Part shown: one piece after another, positions 26,271 to 46,353 of the stretch
How the letters are laid out: every line of letters starts with the position of its first letter
How positions within the stretch are numbered: the stretch's first letter is position 1
Virus record (IMG/VR): IMGVR_UViG_3300025655_000017
Length of the DNA stretch: 64,000 nucleotides
Direction: 5' to 3' (one strand)
Origin: a virus
Program-made: the position numbers and the translations under genes
Notes under the pieces: model-generated
Databases searched by the model: none
Told to the model about the DNA's origin: nothing
Seen by the model: only the letters and a program-made list of their open reading frames with translations

Positions 26271-26636
26271 ATGCAAATTGACGTTAGTGATAGCACAGTT
26301 CATTTGGTAGAAACAATTTGTCCTAAGGGGACAAAAGACAAAGTATTATATACTGCGTTAAAAATGACTTGTTGGAATGAAAATGCTGAGGTAATTTTTG
26401 AAGCAGGAATAACATGTCATTAATGCAATTATATAAAACATGTTCAATGTTGTCATATTATTGATGTTTCTAAATTTTCAGATGAAACACCATTAAATAT
26501 AATTAATCACCCAGATAATTTATTATGGCTTTGCCCCAATCATCACTGGGAATTTGATAATGGCCTCCTTGATAGTTTATATGATTTAATAAAAGATCAT
26601 GAATTATTGAAGAAATACTTGCACATGATAAAATAA
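26271..26636 (+). pseudogene. HNH endonuclease with in-frame TAA
   Basis: TCH*CNY..CHII..NLLWLCPNHHWEFD; TAA at 26421-26423 falls inside a CxxC motif. Confidence 0.65.
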
Positions 26637-26700: not shown

Positions 26701-26731
26701 TTGCATTATAAGAAAAAAGTTTTTATCTTTG
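26701..26731 (+). promoter_or_regulatory. Host-type promoter for tRNA array 1
   Basis: TTGCA..TATCTTTG; a second one ends at 26649. Confidence 0.75.
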
Positions 26732-26767
26732 CACTGTTGAAAGTCGAAAGACTATAAATTTTTAAAT

Positions 26768-26841
26768 CGGAGATTAGAGCAGTCTGGTAGCTTGCTTGGC
26801 TCATAACCAAGAGGTCATTGGTTCAAATCCCTATATGTGCA
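26768..26841 (+). tRNA. tRNA-Met(CAT), initiator-like, with a non-matching (chimeric) 3' end
   Basis: D arm and CTTGG-CTCATAA-CCAAG anticodon arm intact; after TTCAAAT the T and acceptor stems do not pair. Confidence 0.6.
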
Positions 26842-26878
26842 ACTACAAAAACTTTTTTAAAAACATAATTTAATAGAA

Positions 26879-26971
26879 ATGAATACAATGCTAAAAAATA
26901 CAAAGATTAATAATGCAGCGCAACCGCTTCATGGGGATCGTTGTATCTACGCACTAAAGGTTCATTTTTGA
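26879..26971 (+). CDS. Putative attenuator leader peptide 1 (MNTMLKNTKINNAAQPLHGDRCIYALKVHF)
   Basis: 30-codon ORF; its 3' end contains GCACTAAAGG, complementary to the downstream terminator arm. Confidence 0.75.
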   Translation: MNTMLKNTKINNAAQPLHGDRCIYALKVHF

Positions 26972-26991
26972 CAGAAAAAAAGTTTTACTTC

Positions 26992-27028
26992 AAAAAAACC
27001 CTTTAGTGCAAATTAAAGGGTTTTTTTT
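26992..27028 (+). terminator. Attenuator terminator upstream of tRNA array 1
   Basis: CCCTTTAGT-GCAA-ATTAAAGGG stem-loop followed by T8. Confidence 0.9.
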
Positions 27029-27128
27029 ATGTTCATTGACATAGTTGGATTATTTTAGAAAATATTAACTGAAAAAGGTAGTCAGTCCTTTGGAGTGCAA
27101 ACATTATTGCCACCAGTTGATACATAAA

Positions 27129-27204
27129 GGTCTATGGGGCTGCTTGGGTTGGCCGTCGGATTGTCTATCCGAATATCAGATGGGTTCAAATCCCATATAG
27201 ACTG
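27129..27204 (+). tRNA. tRNA-Asp(GTC)
   Basis: Cloverleaf; TCGGA-TTGTCTA-TCCGA. Confidence 0.88.
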
Positions 27205-27210
27205 CAACAT

Positions 27211-27290
27211 GCTCCTGTACGCAAAATAGGCAAAGCGGCCACACTTAGGATGTGGTGATTTATTTGTGGGTTCAAGTCCCACTGGGAGTA
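27211..27290 (+). tRNA. tRNA-Leu(TAG)
   Basis: Cloverleaf; CCACA-CTTAGGA-TGTGG. Confidence 0.9.
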
Positions 27291-27371
27291 CAATTTAATA
27301 AGTTTCAAGTAAAAGTGCTTACTTAAAGACAAATAGTGATTTGATCTTTTTAATGAAGATTATTAATATAT

Positions 27372-27445
27372 CTAGATGTAGCTTAAATGAATAAAGCACC
27401 ATGTTTGGGACATGGAAGATGTCAATTTGAGTTTGACCATCTGGA
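27372..27445 (+). tRNA. tRNA-Pro(TGG)
   Basis: Cloverleaf; CCATG-TTTGGGA-CATGG; atypical T loop. Confidence 0.85.
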
Positions 27446-27489
27446 CTTTTTTTGAAAAAGGAATCTCTAACGTATGTCGAAAGAGATAT

Positions 27490-27766
27490 AGGGCTGGCAG
27501 TTAGCCTATTGCAGTTTAAAAATAACTTTTATACGTTTTTTTAAACGCATAAAGAAATTAATATATAACTATTAATTTTCATACTGTTGGAAACCAATGA
27601 TTGCATATGAAAATGTAATCTTGTTTACTAAACACGTTTTTAGTGGTTGCACTGAACCCTTGATTTTTAGTAAAAAATCATAAACAGGCTACAAAGATCA
27701 GTTTATTAAAACTGTCAATAATAACGTTAGGTTAGCTGCCATTGATTAATTTCATAAAAAGCTCCA
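27490..27766 (+). ncRNA. Candidate multi-stem structured ncRNA inside the tRNA array (possibly a derived tmRNA)
   Basis: 27496-27508 pairs with 27728-27740 (13 bp including G-U); 27509-27519 pairs with 27706-27718; several internal hairpins. Confidence 0.55.
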
Positions 27767-27840
27767 CAGGAGTTAGCTCAGTTGGTTAGAGCGTCATCTT
27801 TACATGGTGAATGTCAATGGTTCGATCCCATTACTCTTGT
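27767..27840 (+). tRNA. tRNA-Val(TAC)
   Basis: Cloverleaf; TCATC-TTTACAT-GGTGA. Confidence 0.9.
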
Positions 27841-27852
27841 CATTTTAATTAT

Positions 27853-27928
27853 GGTCTATGGGGCTGCTGGATGTGGCCACTCCCTTGTCGCGGGAGAGAT
27901 CAGACGGGTTTGAATCCCGTATAGACCG
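27853..27928 (+). tRNA. tRNA-Asp(GTC), second copy
   Basis: Cloverleaf; CTCCC-TTGTCGC-GGGAG. Confidence 0.88.
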
Positions 27929-27942
27929 CTTTTATTATTTAT

Positions 27943-28015
27943 GGGGCATTGATGAAACTGGCTATCATATAACACCTGCAATGTTATTTTACGGGTTCAA
28001 ACCCCGTATGCTCCA
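27943..28015 (+). tRNA. tRNA-Ala(TGC)
   Basis: GGGGCAT/ATGCTCC acceptor with G3-U70; TAACA-CCTGCAA-TGTTA. Confidence 0.88.
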
Positions 28016-28070
28016 CCCAATTAATTGACTATCAGTGTTTTATGTTATGTCAGTTAATCTTTTACTTTAA

Positions 28071-28150
28071 TACTGAGATACCCCCCTTGACTGATATTCA
28101 AAATAAAGGTAATTGGGTGAAAATATGGATTCGACCCCCATTCTCAGTAC
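28071..28150 (+). pseudogene. Degenerate tRNA-like element
   Basis: TACTGAGA/TCTCAGTA acceptor-like stem and ATGG-ATTCGAC-CCCAT T-arm-like hairpin; no good D or anticodon arm. Confidence 0.45.
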
Positions 28151-28161
28151 TTTTTTTACTA

Positions 28162-28233
28162 GCAGGTGTGGTGTAATTGGTAACATACAATCCTTCCAAG
28201 ATTAAGTCGCAAGATCGTTCCTTGTCACCTGCT
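28162..28233 (+). tRNA. tRNA-Gly(TCC)
   Basis: GCAGGTG/CACCTGC acceptor, U73, loop CTTCCAA. Confidence 0.85.
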
Positions 28234-28246
28234 CTGATTTTTACAT

Positions 28247-28320
28247 GCTTCTATAGCTCAACTGGATAGAGCAATTCCCTACGAAGGAATAGGTTGTTAG
28301 TTCGACTCTAACTAGAAGTA
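28247..28320 (+). tRNA. tRNA-Arg(ACG)
   Basis: Cloverleaf; ATTCC-CTACGAA-GGAAT. Confidence 0.92.
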
Positions 28321-28331
28321 CAAATTTTTAA

Positions 28332-28403
28332 AGACCTATCGTATAATGGCTATTACCCCTGATTTTGAGTCAGGAAATTCCAGTTCAAATCTGGATAGGT
28401 TTA
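28332..28403 (+). tRNA. tRNA-Gln(TTG)
   Basis: Cloverleaf; CCTGA-TTTTGAG-TCAGG. Confidence 0.88.
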
Positions 28404-28458: not shown

Positions 28459-29184
28459 ATGAAAAAATGGAATTTAGAGGAAACAAATAAATTAAAACTA
28501 TATATAGCTCAAAGAATGAGCTATGAAGAAATTTGTTTAAAAATGAATAGGACTTTTAGTTCGGTTGGTAATAAAGCTAGAAAATTAAATTTAACATATA
28601 ATCCTAAAAAAAGAATTTATCGAAGTTTATACATTTGTCAAAATACAAAATGTGTAAAAACATTTGAAGGATACGTTATAGCTAACCCGAAATATTGTAG
28701 TAGTTCATGTGCTGCCCAAGTAAACAATTTAAATGTTCAAAGAAATAAACAAAAAAAAATAGATTTACCTCCAAAAATAAATAAACAAAAAATAATAACA
28801 CATAGTTTTTGTTTATACTGTAAGGCTGCTAAACATAATATCTATTCAACTTACTGTAGTGTAACATGCTCTAGTGAACATAAGAGAGACATTAAGATTG
28901 GATTATGGTTAAATGGAAAGCACAGTGGACATAAAGGAAAAACTTTACAATTATGTGGTTTTGTAAAATATCATCTGAGAAAAATCAGAGGCACAAAGTG
29001 CTGTCAATGCGGGTGGGATAAAAAACACCCTATAGATGGAGCTACATGTAACCATATAGATCACATTGACGGTGATGCATCTAACAATAAAATAGAAAAT
29101 TTGAGAATATTATGTCCCAACTGTCATTCATTAACAGCAAACTTTGGTTCACGTAACAAAAATTCTGCTAGAAATTTTAATTAA
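28459..29184 (+). CDS. HNH homing endonuclease with N-terminal HTH and Cys-rich zinc ribbons
   Basis: HIDHIDGDASNN..NLRILCPNCH; CSSSC and CSVTC repeats. Confidence 0.9.
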   Translation: MKKWNLEETNKLKLYIAQRMSYEEICLKMNRTFSSVGNKARKLNLTYNPKKRIYRSLYICQNTKCVKTFEGYVIANPKYCSSSCAAQVNNLNVQRNKQKKIDLPPKINKQKIITHSFCLYCKAAKHNIYSTYCSVTCSSEHKRDIKIGLWLNGKHSGHKGKTLQLCGFVKYHLRKIRGTKCCQCGWDKKHPIDGATCNHIDHIDGDASNNKIENLRILCPNCHSLTANFGSRNKNSARNFN

Positions 29185-29599: not shown

Positions 29600-29723
29600 T
29601 CTCCGGTGGCTTAGTTGGTTAAAGCATCCCACTTTCCTGTCCATTTATTAAGACTAATCCGTTTTAGTTTTTTAAAGGCCAAGATTAATGGGAGGATCGT
29701 GGGTTCGAGTCCCACCCGGAGAA
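29600..29723 (+). tRNA. tRNA (probably Lys-TTT) with a 50-nt insertion in the anticodon loop
   Basis: Well-formed acceptor, D and T arms; TCCCA/TGGGA stem encloses 57 nt instead of 7. Confidence 0.75.
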
Positions 29724-30715: not shown

Positions 30716-30789
30716 ACCCCTATAACTCAGTTGGTTAGAGTATCGTACTTTTAATGCGAGAGTCCTTGGTTCGAGTCCAAGTAGGGGTA
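30716..30789 (+). tRNA. tRNA-Lys(TTT)
   Basis: Cloverleaf; TCGTA-CTTTTAA-TGCGA. Confidence 0.92.
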
Positions 30790-30803
30790 CAAATTTTATT
30801 AAA

Positions 30804-30893
30804 GGGGGTGTAGCTGATGTGGTTTTAGCGGGAGACTGTTAATCTCTGATTGAAAATATTGAAATAAAGTGGGTTCGAATCCTACCGCCCCCG
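30804..30893 (+). tRNA. tRNA-Asn(GTT) with enlarged variable region
   Basis: GGAGA-CTGTTAA-TCTCT, G73, 21-nt variable segment. Confidence 0.8.
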
Positions 30894-30904
30894 CTTTTAT
30901 TTAT

Positions 30905-30978
30905 TCTGAGGTGGCTGAATTGGTTAAGGCACGTTTCTTGTAAAAACGGTTTTGCAGGTTCGAATCCTGTCCTCAGAT
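30905..30978 (+). tRNA. tRNA-Thr(TGT)
   Basis: Cloverleaf; CGTTT-CTTGTAA-AAACG. Confidence 0.85.
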
Positions 30979-31050
30979 CATTTTTTCTAAAATAAACTTG
31001 CAATTGTCATTAATTAATCTTATCTTTACAAAAATTAAAACACAATAATT

Positions 31051-43278: not shown

Positions 43279-43473
43279 GGGTTATAGGGAAAAGAATTTT
43301 TATTACCAATCGGATTAATAAAGATAATGTGTCACATTTTAAAATGTGATAAATTATCTGAGCAAGAATTAACAGTTGTATTTGAGGAGTTAAAATATAA
43401 GTAAAAAATATTTTCTCAAATAGTTGCATGATATATTTTTATGCATTATCTTTGTAGCGTTAAATATATACAT

Positions 43474-43545
43474 TCCCCCGATACTCGTATGGTAGGGTAC
43501 GCCGCTTTTAACGGTGGTATAGTGAGTTCGAATCTCACCGGGGGA
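43474..43545 (+). tRNA. tRNA with a 6-nt anticodon loop (CTTTAA); Lys-derived or ochre-suppressor-like
   Basis: TCCCCCG/CGGGGGA acceptor, perfect T arm, CGCCG-CTTTAA-CGGTG; own promoter at 43447. Confidence 0.7.
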
Positions 43546-43808
43546 ACAATAAAATATTTTTATGAATAAAAATTTTGTTAATACTTATGCAGTAACTGGA
43601 ACATTTCATGGATCAATTGTTATAGCAAATAGTGAAGGAGAAGCAAGAAGAATATTTCATGATTATTATAATGGTGAAAGTATAACAAGCATTTATATAA
43701 AAAATACTTTATGATAATTAAAGAACAATGTTTTTTAGAAAGAATAGTAAAAACTATATGCAATATAATGGACTATTTAAAATATTTAAATAAAAAATTA
43801 GAAAAAGC

Positions 43809-43839
43809 TTGCAAATACAAATAAAAAGACATATATTTG
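43809..43839 (+). promoter_or_regulatory. Host-type promoter for tRNA array 2
   Basis: TTGCA..TATATTTG, followed by CTATTTATA at 43871. Confidence 0.75.
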
Positions 43840-43883
43840 TATTGTAAAACAAAAAAAGAATTTTTTTAAACTATTTATAGGAG

Positions 43884-43967
43884 ATGAAAAATGTAACTGT
43901 ATATTATTATAACTTTAGTTGGTGCTTTTTTTCGGAGGAATCTGAAAAGACACTAGGGGTTATGTAA
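43884..43967 (+). CDS. Putative attenuator leader peptide 2 (MKNVTVYYYNFSWCFFSEESEKTLGVM)
   Basis: 27-codon ORF; ACTAGGGG near its 3' end can pair with CTCCTAGT of the terminator. Confidence 0.75.
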   Translation: MKNVTVYYYNFSWCFFSEESEKTLGVM

Positions 43968-43992
43968 TATAATGTTACAAACAAAGATTTAT

Positions 43993-44037
43993 AAAAATCT
44001 CCTAGTTCAATGTTTTTGAGTTAGGAGATTTTTTTTT
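43993..44037 (+). terminator. Attenuator terminator upstream of tRNA array 2
   Basis: AATCTCCTAGTTCAA-TGTTT-TTGAGTTAGGAGATT stem with T9; tRNA-Glu starts at the next base. Confidence 0.9.
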
Positions 44038-44111
44038 GTTGCCGTGGACGAAGTGGTTAAGTCGTGATATTTTCAATATCAAGGTTACGGGTTCGAACCC
44101 CGTCGGCAATA
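44038..44111 (+). tRNA. tRNA-Glu(TTC)
   Basis: Cloverleaf; TGATA-TTTTCAA-TATCA. Confidence 0.85.
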
Positions 44112-44138
44112 CGATATCTTCAAAAGAGAAGGTAAAAT

Positions 44139-44213
44139 GGTGAGATAGCTTATATGGTAGAAGCGCAGGTCTGAAAAACCTGAGATGGTCGGGATCGTTA
44201 CCCCCTCTCACCA
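44139..44213 (+). tRNA. tRNA-Phe(GAA)
   Basis: GGTGAGA/TCTCACC; CAGGT-CTGAAAA-ACCTG. Confidence 0.85.
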
Positions 44214-44230
44214 CATATTATTATTAAAAT

Positions 44231-44312
44231 GGGCGTATCGTATAGCGGCAATTACGGGAATCTGTAACATTCCTCTCATTTGAGTTCCAAGGTTCAAATC
44301 CCTGACCTACCG
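44231..44312 (+). tRNA. tRNA-Tyr(GTA) with a non-matching (chimeric) 3' acceptor strand
   Basis: GGAAT-CTGTAAC-ATTCC plus variable arm; 5' GGGCGTA cannot pair with 3' ACCTACC. Confidence 0.65.
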
Positions 44313-44319
44313 CAATTTA

Positions 44320-44407
44320 GGGAGGTAATGTAAGCTTGGTTGCTTACGCCAGACTGCTAATCTGTGCGCTCCTGAAAGGGAGGGGGGTTCGATACCTCTG
44401 CCTTCCG
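44320..44407 (+). tRNA. tRNA-Ser(GCT)
   Basis: GGGAGGT/GCCTTCC, loop CTGCTAA, long variable arm, G73. Confidence 0.85.
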
Positions 44408-44625
44408 CAAAAAAACACAATATATCTCCTTTTCACTTTTTATTGAAAGTTTCTTAACATATGTTAAAAATCTTTTTAATTGAAAGTTATAATATTGATT
44501 ATCAATTAATTGTGTTGTGAAAAAATTGTTTGTTCGGCTATTAAGTAATTATTTAGAAACCTTTTTACAATATAAGTCTTAACAATTATGTGACAGCATC
44601 AAGTTATAATTGATAACAAAATTGC

Positions 44626-44752
44626 GATAGCAGCGTTAAGGATGGAAATGGCTTGTCCCAAACCTTTAGGTCGCTTACGCTCCTGAAAGGGCGCAAGCGC
44701 AGGGATGAACGATAGTGAACCATGTACAGCCTGACCCGCAGGAGAACGCCCA
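44626..44752. other. GC-rich structured intergenic element (REP/MITE-like or ncRNA)
   Basis: GC island with hairpin CGCTTACGC..GCGCAAGCG; shares a 14-mer with the tRNA-Ser variable arm. Confidence 0.4.
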
Positions 44753-44838
44753 CAAAATAAATTTTATTATTATAATATTAAACTTGCACAAACCAATATA
44801 TTCCCTTATATTTGCATCGTTAACCTATATAAAAAAAT

Positions 44839-45315
44839 ATGATGACAAGTTTTGAAACTATTGATAAAGTAATAAGAACATATATAAAATCTGTTATAAA
44901 AATAGATGAACAGATAAATAAGTTTGTTCCAAATAGTCATATAGCAGAAACATATAAATTGGTTCTAATCTATGCTGAACAAGAATCTAAAAATCAAGAT
45001 TTGTTTAGTAATGTAAAACATCACCCCTATGACTCAATAGGAACAAACAATCCAGATAATTATGATAGATTAGAAGATGGCAGATTTCTTAATAAAGAAA
45101 CATATAGCGTTGGAATAAATCATTTATTGATTCCTGACTATTTTGATTTAAAGAGATTAAAAAATGATACTGTTAATGAACTACATTCAACTTATAAAAA
45201 ACTTAGAGAAAAGAAAGATATAGTCAGAAATAATATTTTATTAGGTAGAATAGAGCTAAGTGATTACACACATCCACAATTTTCAAAATCATATAAAATA
45301 AAAATTAAAAAATAA
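44839..45315 (+). CDS. Hypothetical protein
   Basis: 158-aa ORF behind the promoter at 44807. Confidence 0.65.
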   Translation: MMTSFETIDKVIRTYIKSVIKIDEQINKFVPNSHIAETYKLVLIYAEQESKNQDLFSNVKHHPYDSIGTNNPDNYDRLEDGRFLNKETYSVGINHLLIPDYFDLKRLKNDTVNELHSTYKKLREKKDIVRNNILLGRIELSDYTHPQFSKSYKIKIKK

Positions 45316-45318
45316 CTT

Positions 45319-46353
45319 ATGACTAACAATAAAATAAATTATTTTACACCTTTGGTTGATATTGAGCAAAATGCTTTAGATTAAATAAACAATCTTGCAT
45401 TAGATGAAAATATCAATCAAATAGCTGTTTTCTCTGATATACATTATTGTGACGAGAAAGCTATTCCAGTTGGATTAGCATTTTCTACTAACGCTCACAT
45501 TTATCCTTTAATTACGGGTAAAGATGTTGGGTGTGGGGTAGCTTATATGAAAATTCCAAAGCAATATGTTTTAAAAACTTTTGATAAAGACAAACATTAT
45601 AATGCATTTCATAACGCTCATTTAAAAATGACTGATGAAGGCTTAGGTGGAGGTAATCATTTTTTATCTTTAGAAGAAGAGAAAGATAATCTTTATATTA
45701 TCGTTCATACCGGAACCAGAAACAGAGGGATTTACATGTATCAAAAACATTATGCTATGTTGAATGGTAGTAATTCTATCTCTGTTAATGAAATAGATGA
45801 AAAACATCCAGAGTAGTATGATGAATATAATGATGTTCTATTCTATGGTGTTAATCGAAGAAAGCAATTTCTTTACAGTACTTTAGATTTTTTGATTAGG
45901 AATCATTATGTAGAAGACGACGATTATTATACAAATGACAGTATTCACAATCACATCAAAAAGGAAGGGGATTATTGGATTCATCGAAAAGGAAGCACAG
46001 AACTTAATAATGACATTATTGTTGTGCCGTTATCAATGACCAGAGGAAGTCTTTTGGTTAAATCGACCTATGATGCTGGAAACTTAAATTCGTGCTCTCA
46101 CGGGGCTGGCAGAGCTTTGAGTAGAACTAAAACTCTTAAATATTGGTATGCGTCTTTAAAGAAAAAAGAACGTCGCCAATATGAATTAGATTTTCCTGAG
46201 TTATTGGGAAGGGATGGTAAATTCAGCAAAGGTTATATTCAAGAGTTTGATTTTGCTTATAAGAATACAACAGAATTAATGAAAGAACAATATTTTTTAA
46301 ATCCTGTAACTCAAACAACTCCTATTTGTACCATTAAATTTTCTGAATTATAA
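45319..46353 (+). pseudogene. rtcB: RtcB RNA ligase interrupted by in-frame TAA and TAG
   Basis: Single frame with DIH, PVG, DVGCG, GGGNHF, HTGTR, HNH, HRKG, SCSHGAGR, AYK; stops at 45382-45384 and 45814-45816. Confidence 0.9.

Follow-up and report, generated by a model that had tools for sequence, protein, structure and literature searches.

The locus analyzed here is probably a ribosome-mediated (leader-peptide) transcription attenuator gating a phage tRNA array, in which a short, presumably translated frame rich in the codons read by the array would decide whether polymerase passes the terminator in front of it. By analogy, the predicted attenuation resembles that of the multivalent ilv and thr leaders, but it would act on tRNA genes. 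An earlier note on this DNA had read the locus as an attenuator, and the layout, the frame-specific codon match, the leader and tRNAs of a sister strain and the geometry of the modelled folds all argue for that reading at the level of sequence and computed structure. The window, a stretch of 64,000 nt, lies inside the 132,834-bp IMG/VR phage record IMGVR_UViG_3300025655_000017 (28% G+C; estimated completeness 42%). The capsid protein of this phage is a distant gp23 relative, with the top GenBank matches in huge uncultured phages (32-36% identity). Its genes have A-rich start contexts without Shine-Dalgarno sites, Shine-Dalgarno cores being found in 3% of starts vs. a background of 6.8%. Coordinates of the features discussed are collected in Table 1.

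Table 1. Features of the leader locus, the tRNA array behind it and the sibling locus (window coordinates)
Feature	Position	Strand	Details
Bacteroidota-type promoter (TTGC, 19 nt, TAnnTTTG)	43809-43839	+	motif; probable transcript start near 43847
AUG-overlapping 5' segment, possible second antiterminator	43878-43885	+	perfect 8-nt complement of 43997-44004
Leader ORF	43884-43967	+	27 codons plus TAA; sole open frame between promoter and terminator
Hairpin P1, long and imperfect	43892-43979	+	encloses most of the ORF; -31.1 kcal/mol, z -6.5
Sensor block, codons 7-21	43902-43946	+	Tyr x3, Asn, Phe x3, Ser x3, Trp, Cys, Glu x3
Candidate antiterminator strand, within last leader codons	43949-43959	+	pairs with 43999-44008, -12.2 kcal/mol
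Intrinsic terminator	43993-44037	+	18-bp stem 43993-44033, 5-nt loop, -18.6 kcal/mol, T9 tract 44029-44037
tRNA-Glu (UUC)	44038-44112	+	ARAGORN; Rfam 59.4 bits; directly behind T9 tract
tRNA-Phe (GAA)	44139-44214	+	ARAGORN; Rfam 46.2 bits
Dead chimera, 5' two-thirds tRNA-Tyr (GUA) and last 24 nt tRNA-Ser (UGA)	44230-44314	+	Rfam 18.6 bits, partial
tRNA-Ser (GCU), type II, unusual sequence	44320-44408	+	tRNA-Sec model 40.3 bits, E 2e-6
Sibling locus (Attenuator 1)	26701-28403		promoter 26701-26731, tRNA(CAU) 26773-26836, ORF, terminator, nine tRNAs
Sibling leader ORF	26879-26971		30 codons; leader locus 26879-27028

The window has 13 copies of the promoter motif TTGC-N19-TAnnTTTG where 2.8 would be expected, and none of 100 shuffles yields 13. 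The copy in front of the leader is kept in the sister strain, the one independent relative of the leader in the collections within reach (contigs L002, L024 and L042, all ending inside tRNA-Phe). It lies about 190 nt ahead of the terminator, and the space between the terminator and the tRNAs fits no promoter; as the earlier note had stated, the T9 tract ends at 44037 and tRNA-Glu begins at 44038. Since the spacers within the array measure 5-26 nt, this promoter is the sole route to tRNA-Glu/Phe/(Tyr)/Ser, and polymerase starting from it must cross the terminator to reach them. Clean plus-strand terminators with a tract of T8 or more number three in 132.8 kb; one lies behind the capsid gene and the others each precede a tRNA array. 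Some other tRNA genes of the window appear ungated: a second copy of the motif (43424-43454) serves a separate tRNA-Lys (43474-43547) that has no leader, and a Lys-Asn-Thr array (30716-30979) stands behind a methyltransferase gene without promoter or terminator.

The sensor block of the leader reads Y Y Y N F S W C F F S E E S E. It had been claimed that 12 of these 15 codons are Tyr, Phe, Ser or Glu, the specificities found downstream, which holds for the amino acids; at the level of codons the match is 10 of 15, since Ser-GCT does not decode TCG and TCT. Even so counted, the leader ranks first among the 565 ATG-initiated ORFs of 20-40 codons in all six frames of the whole genome, and a match of at least 10 was seen in 11 of the 99,174 open 15-codon windows of the genome, the window sizes having been picked after the data were seen. 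The cognate fraction of the whole ORF, for which no window has to be chosen, gives P 0.02-0.03 (0.023-0.028). In the remaining two frames of the same DNA the match is 4-6, and both are closed, with 3-4 stops over the length of the ORF. For the leader locus by itself, the chance of such codon content lies in the range of about 0.002-0.03. The ORF has no Pfam family, and the leader peptides match no known protein. Two other readings of this DNA were rejected: a tRNA remnant or a known RNA family, for which the Rfam search gave no match, and a conserved minigene formed by the out-of-frame ATG-TAA at 43891-43896, which is missing from the sister strain.

Two segments upstream of the terminator are able to pair with its left arm. 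The pairing of 43952-43959 proposed in the earlier note was recovered, with 43999-44006 as the partner (8 bp, one G-U), and the extension it had thought possible consists of two added pairs, 43949-50 with 44007-08, across a one-base bulge. The energy of this candidate antiterminator is equalled by 8-12% of dinucleotide shuffles of the upstream RNA, so that the pairing alone is not beyond chance. The second segment overlaps the leader AUG; its duplex with the terminator arm (-11.5 kcal/mol, P about 0.025 vs. shuffles) forms in the ribosome-free fold of a transcript cut at 44012. It is not a Shine-Dalgarno site, given that the phage genes do without them, and in the model it could blunt termination once the ribosome has left the start and freed it. 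Most of the ORF is enclosed in hairpin P1, a 35-bp near-duplex whose stability was matched by none of 200 shuffles; leader and terminator folded together give z -8. The 3' arm of P1 contains the antiterminator strand, and the modelled hairpin is a candidate anti-antiterminator and pause hairpin. In computed folds the leader RNA can adopt mutually exclusive structures.

In equilibrium folding with ribosome masks the terminator wins at every ribosome position, which means that any switch must be kinetic; in the trp attenuator, likewise, the terminator is favoured at equilibrium. Equilibrium folding was replaced by an analysis of ribosome geometry, in which the transcript was cut at 44012, before the right arm of the terminator, and folded with the ribosome footprint (about -15 to +14) masked. 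In these constrained folds a ribosome placed on codons 9-13 lets the antiterminator form, and one at about codon 19 or further along hides it. The caveat raised earlier, that the last Ser and Glu codons may occlude the antiterminator, is therefore justified: a ribosome at codon 19 or beyond covers the strand, and the useful sensor codons are about 9-18.

The following model of the switch can be proposed. When decoding is fast, the ribosome would proceed to codons 19-28 and cover the antiterminator strand, the terminator hairpin would form, and polymerase would stop in the T9 tract without making tRNAs. When decoding is slow at the Tyr, Phe, Ser, Cys, Trp or Glu codons among codons 9-18, the stalled ribosome would occupy the 5' arm of P1, the 3' arm would be freed, the antiterminator strand would pair with the left arm of the terminator and polymerase would read into the tRNA genes, after which the read-through transcript would be cut by RNase P at 44038. 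The net effect would be a negative feedback that replenishes the tRNA set when the infected cell runs short of it. Without a ribosome, the AUG-overlapping segment may hold the left arm of the terminator and permit read-through, much as the antiterminator of the sibling locus is predicted to form by default.

The array behind the terminator is partly decayed in the window strain, although its Glu and Phe genes are normal. The "Tyr" gene, which the earlier note had recognized as chimeric, has an unpaired acceptor stem, and its tail (44291-44314) matches, base for base, the 3' end of Ser-TGA in three contigs from the same samples as the sister strain (L035, L036 and L037); this identity points to a deletion that joined the front portion of Tyr with the last part of Ser-UGA. 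The Ser-GCU gene falls below the Rfam threshold and is called by ARAGORN at a relaxed threshold only, and it has an ortholog in L035 at 43 bits. Tyr is dead and, judging from the sequence comparison, Ser-UGA, Cys and Ser-GGA have probably been lost; the leader still lists them.

The three contigs carry an ortholog of the 158-aa gene that follows the array (82% identity), and upstream of it Ser-TGA, Cys-GCA, Ser-GCT and a weak Ser-GGA stand in a row. The earlier note had predicted from the Trp, Cys and TCN-Ser codons of the leader that the corresponding tRNAs once belonged to the array and that Trp-CCA, Cys-GCA and Ser-TGA should be sought in a close relative. Two of these three were found, directly before Ser-GCT; no Trp-CCA was seen. 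With Ser-TGA, Cys-GCA and Ser-GGA of the sister strain added, 13 of the 15 sensor codons are cognate, a level reached by 2 of the 99,174 open windows, and the Asn and Trp codons remain as those without a cognate tRNA in the visible arrays. The sensor block holds only four unmatched specificities, so the chance of the Ser/Cys success is about 0.04-0.2 and not negligible. The contigs with the sister leader and those with the Ser and Cys tRNAs are separate assemblies whose link we infer, with a resolvase gene at the break. Immediately ahead of Ser-UGA, at the point where every assembly stops, stand this serine recombinase gene (L035 741-1316, minus strand) and a gene of 246 aa; the sister tRNA array may have taken up a mobile element.

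The sister leader ORF is intact, an outcome expected after nine random substitutions with P 0.32. Nine of its 84 positions differ, five of them at third codon positions, and four of the substitutions are synonymous. Tyr9 is replaced by Ser (AGT), which is still cognate, so the sensor count is unchanged, and a G-to-A change (GGG to GGA) turns the one G-U pair of the antiterminator into A-U, making all its pairs Watson-Crick. The substitutions hit unpaired bases of P1 or keep its pairs; since all of them preserve P1, constraint on the ORF and constraint on the RNA structure both fit and are not separable here. Searches of viral contigs with exact DNA patterns returned no further relative of the leader or array, and neither did searches anchored on RtcB, the capsid protein and the 158-aa protein. 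The more remote homologs of the 158-aa protein (72-78% identity) are found in different surroundings that lack arrays, those of the capsid protein (55% identity or less) likewise have none close by, the 50-aa upstream protein was found at 21 loci, none with tRNAs, and a 200-aa protein near array 1 has no homolog except itself. Look-ups of a 37-aa protein and of the resolvase, both of the sister strain, returned only contigs that end at the same places as the sister contigs.

Further downstream, 1.5 kb beyond the array, lies a gene for RtcB (tRNA ligase) at 45547-46353, which in the window strain and in contigs L025-L028 is split into ORFs of 89 and 153 aa. The sister strain has one intact gene of 344 aa (L035 3383-4417), which suggests a disrupted or interrupted gene in the window strain. 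Both strains share a G+C-rich element (110-140 nt; window 44618-44756, L035 2572-2680) that stands out in very A+T-rich DNA right before the promoter of the 158-aa gene, with an insertion in the window copy; Rfam gives no match for it, and shuffles fold just as well.

A second locus in the window, Attenuator 1, has the same layout and logic in unrelated sequence. Eight of nine consecutive codons in its leader ORF are cognate to the Asp-Leu-Pro-Val-Asp-Ala-Gly-Arg-Gln array behind its terminator, which again ranks first of 565, and the sensor block ends just ahead of the antiterminator strand. This strand (26951-26960) pairs with 27000-27009 over 10 perfect base pairs (P 0.006 vs. shuffles) and does so by default; in the folds, only a ribosome that has reached codon 22 or beyond, immediately past the sensor block, prevents the pairing. 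In contrast to the locus described above, Attenuator 1 has this default antiterminator and no long anti-antiterminator hairpin, carries a tRNA (CAU) earlier on the same transcript, and leaves about 100 nt between the terminator and the first tRNA. Asn, Thr and Lys, which the next array (30716-30979) serves, make up most of the first twelve codons of the sibling ORF. Among other tRNA regions of the window, a tRNA-like gene at 29600-29723 has normal arms and is interrupted in its anticodon region by some 50 extra nt (56.5 bits on the Rfam tRNA model over 124 nt; called by ARAGORN with an intron). ORFs that, read by eye, resemble HNH-type endonucleases (28459-29183 and 26430-26636) flank and interrupt the tRNA arrays, and may be homing elements that split arrays 1 and 3.

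The same order of mini-ORF, terminator and tRNA block is found in phiCbK (JX100813, 47000-52800; L052), a phage of Caulobacter that is unrelated in both phage and host, has 66% G+C and shows no sequence similarity. Three rho-independent terminators annotated in GenBank each stand directly before a tRNA block, and ahead of each lies a small ORF in which the amino acids of that block are over-represented. A 32-codon ORF has Gln, Phe, Val or Ile at 9 of 12 clustered codons, followed within the ORF by a near-copy of the 3' arm of the terminator, and precedes Phe-Val-Ile-Ile-Val-Gln-Gln; ahead of Pro-Pro-Lys-Lys-Leu-Leu-Leu-Ser-Ser stands gp083, in which Ser, Leu, Pro and Lys are abundant. The GenBank labels are "terminator" and "hypothetical protein", with no regulatory role annotated.

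One possible explanation that dispenses with the ribosome, and which we consider unlikely although it fares best among the alternatives, is that the leader is untranslated, that the terminator leaks of its own accord or yields to an antitermination factor encoded by phage or host as a form of temporal control, and that both the frame and its codon content are coincidental. P1 and both partners of the terminator arm would then constitute a protein- or polymerase-binding RNA. A succession of promoter, hairpin and terminator works without translation, P1 is far stabler than classical 1:2 hairpins, the antiterminator alone is not significant and the substitutions in the sister strain are all compatible with conservation of structure. 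The start context is also poor: G occupies positions -1, -3 and -4, where the genes of this phage have 4-6% G, and the AUG lies 8 nt ahead of P1. A GGAG before the leader ATG was rejected as a Shine-Dalgarno site, such cores being below background at the gene starts of this phage. An untranslated leader nevertheless leaves unexplained why the codon match is specific to one frame and first of 565 at two unrelated loci, why the Cys/Ser-TGA prediction succeeded, and why ORFs and arrays match in phiCbK. Nor was there an Rfam antitermination or cis-regulatory family to which the RNA could be assigned: no T-box match was obtained at E up to 10 in 43800-44850, and the cis-regulatory, antitermination and sRNA families gave only sub-threshold, terminator-driven matches (trpB motif, 22 bits vs. 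59; PyrR, 18.9 vs. 54).

The promoter, the very stable fold and the strong terminator could also delimit a separate gene for a small RNA of about 190 nt, or P1, as a near-duplex, could be an RNase III site, with the tRNAs transcribed by incidental read-through. We regard this as improbable: the array has no other promoter, which makes read-through its sole route and not an incidental one, and both the codon match and the conservation of the ORF would go unexplained, with no Rfam family to support a small RNA. That the ORF encodes a functional, aromatic-rich micro-protein of 27 residues whose gene the terminator just ends is highly improbable, for although the ORF is kept in the sister strain, 3 of 26 residues differ between these very close strains, no protein family matches, and no reason is given for a T-tract abutting a tRNA or an ORF tail copying the terminator arm.

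Leader-peptide attenuation is familiar from the amino-acid operons of enterobacteria, including ilvL of ilvGMEDA, thrL, trpL, hisL, pheL and leuL, of which ilvL and thrL are multivalent. The phage leader is like them in having a short ORF between promoter and intrinsic terminator, clustered regulatory codons, a candidate antiterminator strand at the end of the ORF, a 1:2-type hairpin and several amino acids in one leader. Unlike them, it would control tRNA genes instead of biosynthetic enzymes, so that the product would feed back directly on decoding, and it would sense up to six specificities; P1 is much longer, the terminator arm has an extra, AUG-overlapping partner, and the setting is a phage with a Bacteroidota-type host without Shine-Dalgarno sites and without sequence relation to the enterobacterial leaders. 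In E. coli, ribosome stalling on the Phe codons of the pheM leader controls pheST, likewise an attenuator of translation-apparatus genes, but one that is chromosomal, serves a synthetase and senses one amino acid. T-box riboswitches, too, let the tRNA pool decide between terminator and antiterminator ahead of translation-related genes, but they bind uncharged tRNA directly, need no ORF and are each limited to one tRNA. A literature search found no publication describing leader-peptide attenuation of tRNA genes.

The locus bears on the purpose of phage-borne tRNA genes and on their control. That phages meter their own tRNA genes by "roster" leaders, translated test frames that list the codons of the array and open the terminator upon slow decoding, is in our estimate an evenly balanced proposition. 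Under such a scheme, slow decoding could result where codon usage is mismatched or where host defences cleave tRNAs, RtcB being encoded nearby, and the leader would co-evolve with its array and can outlive tRNAs that have been deleted, here Tyr, Ser-UGA and Cys. What the present locus adds is an array decaying in one strain, a leader still listing the lost tRNAs and a sister strain that retains them, and the occurrence of the same design in the culturable phiCbK makes the idea directly testable. If it is true, the tRNA supply of phages would be driven by demand and not constitutive, the leader would report which codons limit a phage in its host, and a link would be drawn between tRNA arrays, the repair of tRNAs and the defences that target them. 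The attenuation familiar from synthetase and amino-acid genes would then extend to tRNA genes and to Bacteroidota-type hosts that do without Shine-Dalgarno sites.
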